Source of the DNA: Escherichia coli
Lineage (GTDB): Bacteria; Pseudomonadota; Gammaproteobacteria; Enterobacterales; Enterobacteriaceae
Reading direction: 5' to 3' (one strand)
NCBI RefSeq assembly: GCF_016026235.1
Contig: NZ_CP065613.1
Length of the DNA stretch: 64,000 nt
Below are positions 4,038-63,351 of the stretch, piece after piece. Numbering within the stretch: the stretch's first letter is position 1; every line of letters begins with the position of its first letter. Under the pieces are notes generated by a model, which did no database searches, was not told the origin of the DNA, and worked only from the letters and a program-made list of their open reading frames with translations. The position numbers were made by a program, and so were the translations under genes.

Positions 4038-4132
4038 GGAAGATCGTCGTCTCCGGTGAGGCGGCTGGACTTCAAATCCAGTTGGGGCCGCCAGCGGTCC
4101 CGGGCAGGTTCGACTCCTGTGATCTTCCGCCA
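4038..4132 (+). tRNA. selC: tRNA-Sec (selenocysteine tRNA)
   Basis: 95-nt sequence GGAAGATCG...TTCGACTCCTGTGATCTTCCGCCA with a long variable arm and encoded CCA; recognised as E. coli selC. Confidence 0.95.
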
Positions 4133-23029: not shown

Positions 23030-23170
23030 ACAAAAAACCCCGCCGGAGCGAGGTTTCGTCAGCCGCCTGCGGCTGGTAACCGCAAAGCACACTGTATTAT
23101 GTCAACACTGAAAGTATACCTGTTCCGCGCAGAACGCGCAATTTCGGCACGAATTTTGACGTATTTAGTA
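23030..23170 (-). ncRNA. istR: IstR antitoxin sRNA region (IstR-1/IstR-2); 5' ends approximate
   Basis: Minus-strand hairpin plus U6 terminator near 23032-23053; contains a ~21-nt block (23087-23110) repeated upstream of tisB; sits divergent from a LexA-boxed promoter. Confidence 0.5.
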
Positions 23171-37569: not shown

Positions 37570-37983
37570 TTAGTTGATTTCGATACGGCGCGGTTTTTTC
37601 GCTTCCGGAATCACGCGTTCGAGATCGATATACAGCAAACCATTTACCAGGTTAGCGCCACGAACATGAATGTTCTCAGCTAACTGGAATTTGCGTTCAA
37701 AGTTGCGTTCAGCGATGCCCTGGTACAGATAGGTGCGCTCTTTTTGTTCGTCGGCGTGAGCACCTTTCACCACCAGAAGATTATCCTGGGCGGTAATTTC
37801 CAGTTCGCTCTCAGCAAAACCAGCCACAGCGATAGCAATGCGGTAATGGTTTTCGTCTACCAGTTCAACGTTATACGGAGGATAGCCGCCATTACTCTGG
37901 CTCTGGTTGTTTTCTAAGTGGTTAAACAAACGGTCAAATCCAATAGCAGAACGGTAAAGCGGGGATAAATCAAAGTTACGCAT
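37570..37983 (-). CDS. ibpA: small heat-shock protein IbpA
   Basis: 137 aa from [20 protein letters not shown]... Confidence 0.9.
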
Positions 37984-38078
37984 AATCAATAGCTCCTGAA
38001 ATCAGCGAGAATGTAAGACCTTCCACAATGGACAGGTCAGGTAGCCAGAACACCCATCAGGCGCGTCCTCATCGGCTA
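37984..38078 (-). promoter_or_regulatory. ibpA 5' UTR (~100 nt), reported site of a ROSE-like RNA thermometer
   Basis: Long leader between the sigma-32 promoter and the start codon with the SD inside a predicted stem; the fold was not computed. Confidence 0.45.
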
Positions 38079-48146: not shown

Positions 48147-48244
48147 GCCGGATGCGGCGTGAACGCCTTATCCGGCCTACAAAAACATGCAAATTCAATA
48201 TATTGCAGGAGTCTCGTAGGCCTGATAAGCGTAGCGCAACAGGC
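48147..48244. repeat. two REP elements in inverted orientation (BIME)
   Basis: GCCGGATGCGGCGTGAACGCCTTATCCGGCCTAC and GTAGGCCTGATAAGCGTAGCGCAACAGGC. Confidence 0.65.
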
Positions 48245-52886: not shown

Positions 52887-54290
52887 TTACGATGACAATG
52901 TTCTGATTAAATTTGAAAAATCTTCTTTGATATCGTGGCTCTCTTCACGCAACTGCTCGATCTTACGGCAGGCATGAAGCACCGTCGTGTGGTCACGACC
53001 ACCAAACGCATCGCCAATCTCCGGCAGACTGTGGTTAGTCAGCTCTTTCGCCAGCGCCATCGCCATCTGGCGCGGACGCGCCACCGAGCGGGATCGACGC
53101 TTGGAAAGGAGATCCGCGACTTTGATCTTGTAGTACTCCGCCACCGTCTTCTGAATATTGTCGATGGTGACCAGTTTTTCCTGCAATGCCAGCAAGTCGC
53201 GCAGCGCCTCACGCACGAAGTCGATGGTGATCGCCCGTCCGGTAAAGTTGGCATTGGCAATGACGCGGTTCAGCGCCCCTTCCAGCTCACGTACGTTAGA
53301 TCGTAGACGCTTGGCGATAAAGAACGCCACTTCGCCCGGCAAACGAATGTCGTTTTCGTCGGCCTTTTTCATCAGGATCGCCACACGGGTTTCCAGCTCT
53401 GGCGGTTCGATCGCCACAGTCAGTCCCCAACCGAAGCGGGATTTCAAACGATCCTCAACGCCGTTGATCTCTTTCGGATAGCGATCCGAGGTGAGAATGA
53501 TCTGTTGATTACCTTCCAGCAGGGCGTTGAAGGTATGGAAAAACTCTTCCTGAGATCGTTCTTTATTAGCAAAAAACTGAATATCGTCGATCAGCAGTGC
53601 ATCTACGGAACGGTAGTAGCGTTTAAACTCTTCGATCGCGTTGTTTTGCAGGGCTTTAACCATGTCCTGAACAAAGCGCTCGGAGTGCATATAAACCACT
53701 TTGGCATTCGGCTTGCGCGCCATAATGCCGTTACCCACCGCATGCAGCAGGTGAGTTTTACCCAGACCCGTGCCGCCATAAAGGAACAACGGGTTATAGG
53801 CACCGCCAGGGTTATCCGCCACCTGGCGAGCCGCCGCGCGCGCCAGTTGGTTAGATTTACCTTCAACGAAGTTATCAAACGTGTGTTTGACGTTTACGTT
53901 AGAACGATAGGTCGGTTCTGCCGGGGCCGGGACGTTATCCCAACCTGAGCGCGTAGAAGGCGCAGCACGTTGCGGCTGCGTTTGCGCCACCTGTGCAGGG
54001 GCCGCGACGTTGCTCGTCACTGCCGCTTGTGGCGTTTGCGTCACCGGTTTGGTGCCGACTTCAAAACGCAGCTGTGGGGCATCCGCTCCGCAGAAACTGG
54101 TTAGCAGTCCATTGATATTATTAAGGTACTTGTCCCGTACCCAATCGAGGACAAAACGGTTTGGCGCGTACAGGGCCAGCGTGTTATCGCTCAGTTCCGC
54201 CTGCAATGGGCGTATCCACATACTGAATTCTGTGGCTGGTAACTCATCCTGCAATCGGGCAAGACACTGCTGCCAAAGCGAAAGTGACAC
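52887..54290 (-). CDS. dnaA: chromosomal replication initiator DnaA
   Basis: 467 aa from a GTG start ([13 protein letters not shown]...); AAA+ Walker [11 protein letters not shown]. Confidence 0.95.
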
Positions 54291-57388: not shown

Positions 57389-58753
57389 ATGAGCGATAAT
57401 GACACTATCGTAGCCCAGGCCACGCCTCCGGGACGTGGCGGCGTTGGCATCCTGCGCATCTCCGGCTTCAAAGCCCGTGAAGTTGCCGAAACCGTGCTGG
57501 GTAAACTGCCTAAGCCGCGCTACGCCGATTATCTTCCGTTTAAAGACGCCGACGGCAGCGTGCTCGATCAGGGGATTGCGCTATGGTTCCCTGGCCCGAA
57601 CTCGTTCACCGGCGAAGATGTGCTGGAACTGCAAGGTCATGGCGGTCCGGTGATCCTCGACCTGCTGTTAAAACGCATTCTGACCATTCCCGGCCTGCGG
57701 ATTGCTCGCCCTGGTGAGTTTTCCGAACGCGCGTTTCTTAACGATAAACTTGACTTAGCCCAGGCCGAGGCGATTGCCGATCTTATCGACGCCAGTTCGG
57801 AACAGGCGGCCCGTTCGGCACTTAACTCGCTGCAAGGCGCATTCTCCGCACGGGTTAATCATCTGGTAGAAGCCCTCACCCACTTGCGCATTTACGTCGA
57901 AGCGGCAATTGATTTCCCTGATGAAGAGATCGATTTCCTCTCCGACGGCAAAATTGAAGCCCAGCTTAATGACGTGATTGCCGATCTCGATGCAGTGCGT
58001 GCTGAAGCACGTCAGGGTAGTTTGTTGCGCGAAGGGATGAAAGTGGTGATTGCCGGACGTCCTAACGCCGGTAAATCGAGCCTGTTAAACGCGCTGGCGG
58101 GGCGTGAAGCGGCAATCGTAACCGATATCGCCGGAACTACGCGTGACGTGCTGCGTGAGCATATCCACATTGACGGAATGCCGCTGCATATCATCGATAC
58201 CGCCGGGCTACGTGAAGCCAGTGACGAAGTAGAACGTATTGGTATCGAGCGCGCGTGGCAGGAAATTGAACAGGCCGACCGCGTGCTGTTTATGGTCGAT
58301 GGCACCACAACAGACGCCGTGGATCCGGCAGAGATCTGGCCGGAATTTATTGCCCGTCTGCCAGCGAAACTGCCGATCACCGTGGTGCGCAATAAAGCCG
58401 ATATCACCGGCGAAACGCTGGGAATGAGTGAAGTGAACGGTCACGCGTTAATTCGTCTCTCGGCAAGGACTGGTGAAGGCGTGGACGTGCTGCGTAACCA
58501 TCTCAAACAGAGCATGGGCTTTGACACCAACATGGAAGGCGGCTTCCTGGCGCGTCGTCGCCACCTACAGGCGCTGGAACAGGCAGCGGAACATCTACAA
58601 CAGGGCAAAGCGCAACTGTTGGGAGCCTGGGCAGGTGAACTGCTGGCGGAAGAGTTGCGTCTGGCACAGCAGAACTTAAGCGAAATCACCGGGGAATTTA
58701 CTTCAGACGACCTGCTGGGGCGGATTTTCTCCAGCTTCTGTATTGGTAAGTAA
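57389..58753 (+). CDS. mnmE: tRNA modification GTPase MnmE (TrmE)
   Basis: 454 aa with G-domain motif GRPNAGKSS and C-terminal CIGK. Confidence 0.95.
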
Positions 58754-58905
58754 CCGCGCTTACGAAGCCGTATTCTGACTGTCAGATGCGGCTTCGCTTC
58801 ATTGTTAGCACTCCTGTTATTCCTCAACCCTTTTTTTAAACATTAAAATTCTTACGTAATTTATAATCTTAAAAAAAAGCATTTAATATTGCTCCCCGAA
58901 CGATT

Positions 58906-58921
58906 GTGATTCGATTCACAT
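58906..58921 (+). promoter_or_regulatory. CRP binding site of the tna promoter
   Basis: Perfect TGTGA-N6-TCACA (TGTGATTCGATTCACA). Confidence 0.7.
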
Positions 58922-58995
58922 TTAAACAATTTTAGAATAGACAAAATTCTTGAGTATTATACTGTAGCCTCGTGTCTTTCGAGGATAAGTGCATT

Positions 58996-59070
58996 ATGAA
59001 TATCTTACATATATGTGTGACCTCAAAATGGTTCAATATCGACAATAAGATTGTCGATCACCGCCCTTAA
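58996..59070 (+). CDS. tnaC: tna operon leader peptide (24 aa)
   Basis: MNILHICVTSKWFNIDNKIVDHRP read from the sequence, with the regulatory Trp12 and Pro24-stop. Confidence 0.85.
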   Translation: MNILHICVTSKWFNIDNKIVDHRP

Positions 59071-59290
59071 TTTACCCTTCTGTAGCCATCACCAGAGCCA
59101 AACCGATTAGATTCAATGTGAACGATTAGTTTGCTATATCTTAATTTTGCCTTTTGCAAAGGCCATCTCTCGTTTATTTACTTATTTTAGTAAATGATGG
59201 TGCTTGTATATATACATGGCGAATTAATGGATATTGCAGATGTAATATTCACAGGGATCACTGTAATTAAAATAAATGAAGGATTATGTA

Positions 59291-60706
59291 ATGGAAAACT
59301 TTAAACATCTCCCTGAACCGTTCCGCATTCGTGTTATTGAGCCAGTAAAACGTACTACTCGCGCTTATCGTGAAGAAGCAATTATTAAATCCGGTATGAA
59401 CCCGTTCCTGCTGGATAGCGAAGATGTGTTTATCGATTTACTGACCGACAGCGGCACCGGGGCGGTAACCCAAAGTATGCAGGCAGCGATGATGCGCGGC
59501 GACGAAGCCTACAGCGGCAGCCGCAGCTACTATGCGTTAGCCGAGTCAGTGAAAAATATCTTTGGTTATCAATATACTATTCCGACTCACCAGGGCCGTG
59601 GCGCAGAGCAAATCTATATTCCGGTACTGATTAAAAAACGCGAGCAGGAAAAAGGCCTGGATCGCAGCAAAATGGTGGCATTCTCTAACTATTTCTTTGA
59701 TACCACGCAGGGCCATAGCCAGATTAACGGCTGTACCGTGCGTAACGTCTATATCAAAGAAGCCTTCGATACGGGCGTGCGTTACGACTTTAAAGGCAAC
59801 TTTGACCTCGAAGGATTAGAACGCGGTATTGAAGAAGTTGGCCCGAATAACGTGCCGTATATCGTTGCAACCATCACCAGTAACTCTGCAGGTGGTCAGC
59901 CGGTTTCACTGGCAAACTTAAAAGCGATGTACAGCATCGCGAAGAAATACGATATTCCGGTGGTAATGGACTCCGCACGCTTTGCTGAAAACGCCTATTT
60001 CATCAAGCAGCGTGAAGCAGAATACAAAGACTGGACCATCGAGCAGATCACCCGCGAAACCTACAAATATGCCGATATGCTGGCGATGTCCGCCAAGAAA
60101 GATGCGATGGTGCCGATGGGCGGCTTGCTGTGCATGAAAGACGACAGCTTCTTTGATGTGTACACCGAGTGCAGAACCCTTTGCGTGGTGCAGGAAGGCT
60201 TCCCGACATATGGCGGCCTGGAAGGCGGCGCGATGGAGCGTCTGGCGGTAGGTCTGTATGACGGCATGAATCTCGACTGGCTGGCTTATCGTATCGCGCA
60301 GGTACAGTATCTGGTCGATGGTCTGGAAGAGATTGGCGTTGTCTGCCAGCAGGCGGGCGGTCACGCGGCATTCGTTGATGCCGGTAAACTGCTGCCGCAT
60401 ATCCCGGCAGACCAGTTCCCGGCACAGGCGCTGGCGTGCGAGCTGTATAAAGTCGCCGGTATCCGTGCGGTAGAAATTGGCTCTTTCCTGTTAGGCCGCG
60501 ATCCGAAAACCGGTAAACAACTGCCATGCCCGGCTGAACTGCTGCGTTTAACCATTCCGCGCGCAACATATACTCAAACACATATGGACTTCATTATTGA
60601 AGCCTTTAAACATGTGAAAGAGAACGCGGCGAATATTAAAGGATTAACCTTTACCTACGAACCAAAAGTATTGCGTCACTTCACCGCAAAACTGAAAGAA
60701 GTTTAA
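59291..60706 (+). CDS. tnaA: tryptophanase
   Basis: 471 aa from [18 protein letters not shown]... Confidence 0.95.
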
Positions 60707-60796
60707 TTAATACTACAGAGTGGCTATAAGGATGTTAGCCACTCTCTTACCCTACATCCTCAATAACAAAAATAGCCTTCCTCTAAAGGTGGCATC

Positions 60797-62044
60797 ATGA
60801 CTGATCAAGCTGAAAAAAAGCACTCTGCATTTTGGGGTGTTATGGTTATAGCAGGTACAGTAATTGGTGGAGGTATGTTTGCTTTACCTGTTGATCTTGC
60901 CGGTGCCTGGTTTTTCTGGGGTGCCTTTATCCTTATCATTGCCTGGTTTTCAATGCTTCATTCCGGGTTATTGTTATTAGAAGCAAATTTAAATTATCCT
61001 GTCGGCTCCAGTTTTAACACCATCACCAAAGATTTAATCGGTAACACCTGGAACATTATCAGCGGTATTACCGTTGCCTTCGTTCTCTATATCCTCACTT
61101 ATGCCTATATCTCTGCTAATGGTGCGATCATTAGTGAAACGATATCAATGAATTTGGGCTATCACGCTAATCCACGTATTGTCGGGATCTGCACAGCCAT
61201 TTTCGTTGCCAGCGTATTGTGGATAAGTTCGTTAGCCGCCAGTCGCATTACCTCATTGTTCCTCGGGCTGAAGATTATCTCCTTTGTGATCGTGTTTGGT
61301 TCTTTCTTCTTCCAGGTCGATTACTCCATCCTGCGCGATGCCACCAGCACCACTGCGGGAACGTCTTACTTCCCGTATATCTTTATGGCTTTGCCGGTGT
61401 GTCTGGCGTCATTTGGTTTCCACGGCAATATTCCCAGCCTGATTATTTGCTATGGAAAACGCAAAGATAAGTTAATCAAAAGCGTGGTATTTGGTTCGCT
61501 GCTGGCGCTGGTGATTTATCTCTTCTGGCTCTATTGCACGATGGGGAATATTCCGCGCGAAAGCTTTAAGGCGATAATCTCCTCAGGCGGCAACGTTGAT
61601 TCGCTGGTGAAATCGTTCCTCGGCACCAAACAGCACGGCATTATCGAGTTTTGCCTGCTGGTGTTCTCTAACTTAGCTGTTGCCAGTTCGTTCTTTGGTG
61701 TCACGCTGGGGTTGTTCGATTATCTGGCGGATCTGTTTAAGATTGATAACTCCCACGGCGGGCGTTTCAAAACCGTGCTGTTAACCTTCCTGCCACCCGC
61801 GTTGTTGTATCTGATCTTCCCGAACGGCTTTATTTACGGGATCGGCGGTGCCGGACTGTGCGCCACTATCTGGGCGGTCATTATCCCCGCGGTGCTGGCA
61901 ATCAAAGCTCGCAAAAAGTTTCCCAATCAGATGTTCACGGTCTGGGGCGGCAATCTTATTCCGGCGATTGTCATTCTCTTTGGTATAACCGTAATTTTGT
62001 GCTGGTTCGGCAACGTCTTTAACGTGTTACCTAAATTTGGCTAA
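60797..62044 (+). CDS. tnaB: low-affinity tryptophan permease
   Basis: 415 aa aromatic amino acid permease. Confidence 0.9.
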   Translation: MTDQAEKKHSAFWGVMVIAGTVIGGGMFALPVDLAGAWFFWGAFILIIAWFSMLHSGLLLLEANLNYPVGSSFNTITKDLIGNTWNIISGITVAFVLYILTYAYISANGAIISETISMNLGYHANPRIVGICTAIFVASVLWISSLAASRITSLFLGLKIISFVIVFGSFFFQVDYSILRDATSTTAGTSYFPYIFMALPVCLASFGFHGNIPSLIICYGKRKDKLIKSVVFGSLLALVIYLFWLYCTMGNIPRESFKAIISSGGNVDSLVKSFLGTKQHGIIEFCLLVFSNLAVASSFFGVTLGLFDYLADLFKIDNSHGGRFKTVLLTFLPPALLYLIFPNGFIYGIGGAGLCATIWAVIIPAVLAIKARKKFPNQMFTVWGGNLIPAIVILFGITVILCWFGNVFNVLPKFG

Positions 62045-62175
62045 ATCCTTCAAGAAGCCAGTCATTCGCTGGCTTCTTGCCTCTCAGGAAATCACTTATG
62101 TCCAAATGGCAACTCGCCTGATCCTCCTTCACCACGTATGCTTTGCGTCACCTTACTATCAGGACGCTTTAGCCC

Positions 62176-63351
62176 ATGTCCCGCTTTTTGATTTGTAGTT
62201 TTGCCCTGGTTTTACTTTATCCCGCCGGGATTGATATGTACCTCGTTGGTTTACCGCGCATCGCCGCCGATCTCAATGCCAGCGAAGCGCAGTTACATAT
62301 TGCGTTCTCCGTTTATCTGGCAGGTATGGCAGCTGCGATGTTATTTGCCGGTAAAGTGGCCGATCGTTCAGGGAGAAAGCCTGTCGCCATACCAGGCGCG
62401 GCGCTATTTATTATCGCCTCGGTGTTCTGTTCACTGGCTGAAACCAGCACGTTATTTCTTGCAGGCCGATTTCTACAGGGGTTGGGCGCAGGCTGTTGTT
62501 ACGTAGTGGCGTTCGCCATTTTGCGCGACACGCTGGATGATCGACGTCGGGCTAAAGTGCTGTCATTACTCAACGGTATTACCTGCATCATTCCGGTGTT
62601 AGCGCCAGTGCTCGGACATCTGATTATGCTTAAATTCCCGTGGCAGAGTCTGTTCTGGGCGATGGCAATGATGGGCATCGCGGTACTGATGTTGTCTTTG
62701 TTTATTTTAAAAGAAACGCGCCCAGCGTCCCCCGCTGCTTCGGACAAACCACGAGAAAATAGCGAGTCGCTGCTTAATCGGTTTTTCCTCAGCCGTGTTG
62801 TTATCACCACCCTCAGCGTTTCGGTGATCCTCACTTTCGTCAATACATCGCCGGTATTGCTGATGGAAATCATGGGTTTTGAGCGCGGAGAATACGCCAC
62901 CATTATGGCGTTGACCGCTGGCGTCAGCATGACCGTTTCATTCTCCACGCCATTTGCGCTGGGAATTTTTAAGCCACGTACGTTGATGATCACCTCGCAG
63001 GTGTTATTCCTTGCGGCGGGGATCACCCTTGCCGTTTCACCTTCCCATGCGGTTTCTCTGTTTGGTATCACGCTGATTTGCGCCGGTTTCTCGGTAGGTT
63101 TTGGCGTAGCGATGAGTCAGGCGTTAGGACCATTTTCATTACGCGCGGGCGTAGCCAGCTCGACCTTAGGTATTGCGCAGGTTTGCGGTTCGTCACTGTG
63201 GATTTGGCTGGCAGCGGTGGTTGGTATCGGCGCATGGAATATGCTGATCGGGATTCTGATTGCCTGTAGCATAGTGAGCCTGTTGCTGATTATGTTCGTC
63301 GCGCCTGGACGCCCCGTTGCCGCTCATGAAGAAATCCATCACCACGCTTGA
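62176..63351 (+). CDS. mdtL: multidrug efflux MFS transporter
   Basis: 391 aa. Confidence 0.9.

Follow-up and report, generated by a model that had tools for sequence, protein, structure and literature searches.

Does the DNA between mnmE and tnaA in this Escherichia coli sequence carry every element of the tryptophan-induced switch that governs the tna operon, and, if so, is it the same switch as in strain K-12? The window, by which we mean the whole 64,000-nucleotide stretch of DNA analyzed, has the gene order mnmE-tnaC-tnaA-tnaB-mdtL across 57389-63351, as in E. coli. A 540-nt query extending from the mnmE stop to the tnaA start (58754-59293) found matches in 5,417 of 5,426 complete E. coli genomes. 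Several RefSeq E. coli strains are 100% identical over that query, and because RefSeq annotates tnaC ("tryptophanase leader peptide") and tnaA there, the feature is the tna operon control region. This is an already-known system, with copies annotated in thousands of genomes, and the tna leader is a textbook case of nascent-peptide-controlled, Rho-dependent attenuation. The genes and signals that frame the leader are as follows.

58763-58796, plus strand: inverted repeat CGAAGCCG...CGGCTTCG just 3' of the mnmE stop codon, read from the sequence
59279-59284, plus strand: tnaA Shine-Dalgarno sequence AAGGAT, 6 nt 5' of the ATG, read from the sequence
59291-60706, plus strand: tnaA, tryptophanase (471 aa, MENFKH...), Pfam Beta_elim_lyase E 1.2e-83 and RefSeq annotation in an identical strain
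60797-62044, plus strand: tnaB, low-affinity tryptophan permease (415 aa), Pfam Trp_Tyr_perm E 9e-153 and RefSeq annotation

An alternative tnaA ORF of 476 aa, beginning at the in-frame ATG at 59276, was rejected in favor of the ATG at 59291, which is preceded by AAGGAT and matches the RefSeq start; the tnaA ribosome-binding region is the same as in K-12. The inverted repeat at 58763-58796, which drew no call in a consensus terminator scan, is probably the 3' hairpin of mnmE, and is context outside the tna switch. An Rfam gathering-level scan of the whole window found no family in 58.9-59.3 kb; elsewhere, it identified the following.

4038-4128, plus strand: tRNA-Sec (selC)
23032-23161, minus strand: istR
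37977-38049, minus strand: ROSE_2 thermometer
48181-48223, plus strand: ES036 sRNA
53700-53780, plus strand: AsdA, the antisense RNA of dnaA mRNA

The distance from selC to tnaC is ~2.7 kb longer than in K-12.

The first element is a binding site for the cAMP receptor protein (CRP), followed by a core promoter.

58905-58920, no strand assigned: CRP site with the perfect core TGTGA-N6-TCACA, TGTGATTCGATTCACA, found by pattern search
58931-58963, plus strand: core promoter, with a -35-like TTTAGA at 58931-58936 and -10 candidates TATTAT (58955-58960) and TATACT (58958-58963), from a promoter scan and reading of the sequence

The initial annotation had placed a perfect CRP core ahead of tnaC, and that core is present, although the start given, 58906, was one base late. 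It is the sole perfect TGTGA-N6-TCACA on either strand of the 64 kb; the chance expectation is 0.07, and at least one match arose in 6 of 100 dinucleotide-preserving shuffles. The site is unchanged in seven E. coli alleles, in E. albertii, and in one divergent Escherichia. The two -10 candidates overlap and each scores 5/6, and K-12 likewise keeps two overlapping 5/6 hexamers. Transcription would start near 58967-58972, the latter position being derived from the 319-nt length of the K-12 leader, and the center of the CRP site, at 58912.5, would then lie ~60 bp upstream of the start. In K-12, tna is under catabolite repression.

Several observations concern the upstream boundary of the CRP site and the distribution of the leader. 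Across the mnmE-tna intergenic region (58754-58904), homology to other genomes breaks at 58903-58905; at this break, O157:H7 carries an island that includes a ShET2/EspL2 effector gene with a frameshift, two contigs of metagenome-assembled genomes (MAGs) break at 58903, and one of these two, L007, has ~2.6 kb of other sequence replacing 58754-58902. One RefSeq strain has an IS1 annotated under a tna-region match that is split in two. At least one complete E. coli genome has seven separate tna-leader matches (the median is one), which could reflect amplification or an assembly artefact. A contig scan with a 20-mer from tnaC matched four loci; among these, L006 (a Collinsella sp. MAG) is 100%, and L007 (a Bacillota MAG) 96-100%, identical to the window tna leader. 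These two E. coli leaders are probably binning contamination in public MAGs and so are useless as outgroups.

Downstream of the promoter lies the leader peptide gene, with its own translation signal and an internal hairpin.

58981-58985, plus strand: tnaC Shine-Dalgarno sequence GAGGA, 10 nt 5' of the ATG, read from the sequence
58996-59070, plus strand: tnaC, the 24-codon leader (arrest) peptide MNILHICVTSKWFNIDNKIVDHRP plus stop, from the ORF list, Pfam, and RefSeq
59038-59058, plus strand: perfect 9-bp hairpin AUCGACAAU-AAG-AUUGUCGAU covering tnaC codons 15-21, from the minimum free energy (MFE) fold, ending 10 nt ahead of the stop

A leader of 24 codons with Trp at codon 12 and a Pro-stop ending had been described from the sequence, and all of these are seen at 58996-59070: Trp12 is TGG at 59029-59031, Asp16 is GAC at 59041-59043, Pro24 is CCT at 59065-59067, and the stop is TAA at 59068-59070. 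The peptide matches Pfam PF08053 Tna_leader over positions 1-24 of 24 (E 3.7e-20; score 71.1 bits, cutoff 25) and does not differ from K-12 TnaC at any residue; every E. coli allele fetched encodes it under one RefSeq accession, WP_001364348.1. The residues known from K-12 to be essential in TnaC, Trp12, Asp16, and Pro24, are therefore all present, with the stop codon directly after the last. The hairpin occurs in the MFE fold of all eight alleles, with variation that is either wobble-compatible or pair-gaining, and it may be the RNA polymerase pause hairpin that couples translation to transcription.

The spacer between tnaC and tnaA had been put at ~220 nt; it measures exactly 220 nt (59071-59290), the same length as in K-12. 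Its proximal end and the last codons of tnaC hold the candidate rut and boxA-like elements.

59054-59121, plus strand: candidate rut tract, C-rich, G-poor, and predicted to be largely unpaired, from composition and centroid fold
59062-59070, plus strand: boxA-like motif CGCCCTTAA over Arg23-Pro24-stop (K-12 equivalent CGCCCTTGA), read from the sequence
59122-59278, plus strand: distal spacer, AT-rich with G>C, from composition

The candidate rut tract starts in the final tnaC codons and extends ~50 nt into the spacer. Its first 40 nt (59054-59093), the best-scoring window of that size, contain 16 C and 4 G, a composition reached by the top 0.34% of 40-nt windows on both strands of the 64 kb; 59062-59101 is 38% C and 12% G, and 11 YC dinucleotides fall within 59064-59113. 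In the leader's centroid fold, most of the tract is predicted to be unpaired, and its 47-nt core (59075-59121) is invariant among the seven E. coli alleles. The K-12 literature places rut at the same spot, the tnaC stop codon. The initial annotation had proposed that the spacer be inspected for C>G skew. That skew exists in the local tract at the stop codon but not in the spacer as a whole, which has 34 C and 38 G; a hand count gives 14 C and 8 G in the first 51 nt, leaving by subtraction 20 C and 30 G, i.e., G>C, in the distal 169 nt. Because the skew is confined to the stop-codon tract, a spacer-wide test would wrongly dismiss the site, and the place to look for rut character is the immediate surroundings of the stop codon.

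The boxA-like motif conforms poorly to the gamma-proteobacterial consensus GYTCTTTAANA, agreeing at 6 of 10 specified positions in both the window and K-12 alleles. The phage lambda-type boxA is CGCTCTTA, and against that sequence the window allele scores 7/8 and K-12 6/8. On these sequence comparisons, the motif is boxA-like, and no more than that. To judge from its title as cited, Konan & Yanofsky (2000) concerns a role for boxA in tna.

With these elements in place, the window very probably contains the canonical E. coli tnaCAB control region, working by tryptophan-induced, Rho-dependent attenuation, a mechanism established for K-12 tna. The element positions, the K-12-identical peptide, and the local C>G tract come from the present sequence; CRP activation, arrest, Rho dependence, and pausing are taken from K-12 experiments. 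In such a scheme, cAMP-CRP at 58905-58920 would activate the promoter, making the operon subject to catabolite repression, and the transcript would begin ~24 nt ahead of tnaC, whose 24 codons a ribosome would then translate. When free L-tryptophan is low, the peptide would be released at the stop and the ribosome would depart; the rut tract (~59054-59121) would be exposed, and Rho would load and terminate the polymerase that had paused within the 220-nt spacer. With abundant tryptophan, L-Trp would lodge in the exit tunnel with nascent TnaC (through Trp12, Asp16, and Pro24), and release-factor hydrolysis of TnaC-tRNAPro would be blocked; the ribosome, held on the stop codon, would mask boxA/rut and block Rho. 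Nothing in the sequence contradicts this canonical tna mechanism.

The presence of a Trp codon and of a hairpin within a short leader ORF also recalls the attenuator of the trp operon, where a ribosome on the Trp codon selects between alternative hairpins and an intrinsic terminator. Here, there is a single Trp codon, and it does not lie close to the end of the ORF; moreover, the terminator scan found no intrinsic-terminator-like G+C hairpin plus U-run in the leader (58972-59290), which is what factor-dependent attenuation would predict. Folding of the leader (58972-59300) is modestly more favorable than that of shuffled sequences (z -1.89), with most of the predicted pairing in the distal spacer, but conserved RNA structure in the spacer, sought by folding eight alleles, was not found: the MFE structures differ among alleles, and no spacer substitutions between the window and K-12 form compensatory pairs. 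Since the allele folds disagree, we limit any structural claim to the tnaC hairpin. The K-12 homologue, in addition, is Rho-dependent in the literature. A trp-style attenuator was therefore rejected, the leader having no terminator-like site, and we regard it as scarcely credible.

The same folding data bear on another reading of the spacer, namely that it acts mainly post-transcriptionally, by docking ribosomal protein L4 and so reducing the translation of TnaA, rather than as a zone of Rho entry and termination. L4 does bind the K-12 220-nt spacer, with a Kd of about 2 uM, and reduces translation of TnaA, and the predicted pairing is concentrated distally, where the K-12 literature puts L4 binding alongside RNA polymerase pause and Rho termination points. 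The L4 effect is, however, described as a layer added to Rho attenuation; the C-rich composition and the invariance of the proximal tract are in keeping with rut, and the allele differences preserve no single fold. L4 regulation as the main function of the spacer is thus very unlikely.

Whether this is the K-12 switch in detail is a different matter. The K-12 tnaCAB leader (tnaC b3707; MG1655 3888435-3888509) has the same locus, gene order, and TnaC peptide, and an ungapped 557-nt alignment of the two has 28 substitutions and no indels. The two agree fully at the CRP site and the bases flanking it, through codons 1-14 of tnaC, over 59075-59121 (the rut core), and for the 55 nt immediately preceding tnaA. 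The -10 region differs, reading GTATTATACT in the window versus GTGTAATAAT in K-12, where the hexamers at the -10 candidate positions are TGTAAT and AATAAT. Three changes in tnaC are synonymous, two of which give the window its perfect 9-bp hairpin instead of the eight pairs, one of them G.U, of K-12. The tnaC stop is TAA in the window versus TGA in K-12 (59069, A versus G), and just past it, position 59074 is A in the window (TTTACCC) versus G in K-12 (TTTGCCC); 11 further changes are found in the distal spacer (59122-59235). The comparison with K-12 that had been proposed thus confirmed the locus, peptide, CRP site, and spacer length, but identified a different allele at the stop, the boxA-like motif, and the -10. 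Likewise, the statement that all elements of antitermination are visible is correct in that every element is present, yet the UGA stop, read only by RF2, on which the K-12 mechanism turns, is replaced by UAA; the window allele departs from K-12 in this feature while still being a member of the tna control family.

The 28 substitutions are not spread like those of the neighboring DNA. Divergence from K-12 is 9.9% from CRP to tnaC, 5.3% in tnaC, and 5.5% in the spacer, and it remains raised for ~300 nt into tnaA, whereas yidC and mnmE differ by 0.3-0.4%, two other intergenic regions by 0%, and sequences further downstream by 1.6-2.8%. This peak, at 58905-59600, places the control region on a short, deeply diverged haplotype block, and the segment looks like an old, recombining one. 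The types of -10 and stop combine differently across the seven E. coli alleles, and the region is therefore a recombinational mosaic.

UAA is decoded by both RF1 and RF2, UGA by RF2 only. Because UAA can also be read by RF1, how strongly, or from what tryptophan level, the operon is induced may not be the same as in K-12, with either less induction or a need for more tryptophan. In the mechanistic and structural literature searched, the tnaC stop is UGA, read by RF2. According to Su et al. (2021), the release of TnaC is "efficiently catalysed by RF1"; their source is Emmanuel et al. (2019), in the title of which TnaC preferentially inhibits RF2.

How common the two stop codons are was determined by exact-word search in 5,426 complete E. 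coli genomes, using 35-mers chosen so that every 28-mer within them spans both sites. The haplotype counts were as follows.

TAA with A at 59074 (window): 1,752 of 5,426 genomes
TAA with G at 59074: 36 of 5,426 genomes
TGA with G at 59074 (K-12): 3,596 of 5,426 genomes
TGA with A at 59074: 1 of 5,426 genomes

The tnaC stop is accordingly TAA in ~33% of these genomes and TGA in ~66%. One of the genomes with UAA is that of the laboratory strain B95.deltaA, an E. coli B (BL21) derivative with 99.8% identity to the window in the control region. Outside the species, TGA+G is found together with the window-type -10 in the type strain of E. albertii, and TAA+A together with the K-12-type -10 in a divergent Escherichia, SCPM-O-B-8794; the latter has 94.3% identity to the window across 8.4 kb, roughly the distance of E. 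albertii in this region. Both stop states therefore exist beyond E. coli proper. As a tentative and rather unlikely suggestion, these distributions could represent a stable, old two-allele UAA/UGA polymorphism at the TnaC arrest switch, linked to the boxA/rut change and common to other Escherichia lineages.

It is also conceivable, though somewhat unlikely, that the two alleles are functionally distinct, UAA strains needing more tryptophan or inducing less, with the changes in boxA (59069 and 59074) and the -10 partly compensating or retuning basal expression. Consistent with this idea are the differences at the stop and at 59074 themselves, the very few recombinants between the two major haplotypes (1752/36/3596/1), the recurrence of TAA+A in the divergent Escherichia (the type strain of E. 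albertii having TGA), the excess of divergence at the control region (5-10%, versus 0.3-2% in the flanks), and the reported efficiency of RF1 in TnaC release together with the RF2 preference named in the title of Emmanuel et al. (2019). Nevertheless, the two sites are 5 nt apart, and tight linkage is expected without selection; the divergence peak includes synonymous sites in 5' tnaA, and a neutral recombined block fits it equally well. No discussion of a natural UAA allele was found in the literature searched, the reach of which did not extend to the primary stop-codon papers. In work from Yanofsky's group, UGA was reportedly swapped for UAA or UAG and induction persisted, albeit at altered levels, which also speaks against a UAA allele being set apart by its function.

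If RF1 releases TnaC despite tryptophan, then either the tryptophan threshold for indole production by UAA strains would differ or the RF2-specific arrest model is incomplete. With UAA in a third of complete E. coli genomes, nature has provided an experiment on release-factor choice versus tryptophan sensing and indole signalling, and the UAA allele is relevant to tnaC-based tryptophan biosensors in non-K-12 hosts.

Two related systems help to define the one in the window. The tnaC of Proteus vulgaris likewise encodes, 5' of tnaA, an arrest peptide that responds to tryptophan and governs the access of Rho, but P. vulgaris TnaC is longer and stalls in elongation at Lys-33. In the window, Pro24 directly precedes the stop, as in E. 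coli, so that arrest would occur at termination, unlike in P. vulgaris. The leader of speF (speFL, encoding SpeFL) is likewise a small upstream ORF at which ligand-dependent arrest on the stop codon covers a rut site and keeps Rho from terminating transcription; it differs from tnaC in its peptide, its ligand (ornithine), and its operon, and it is RF1 that SpeFL blocks.
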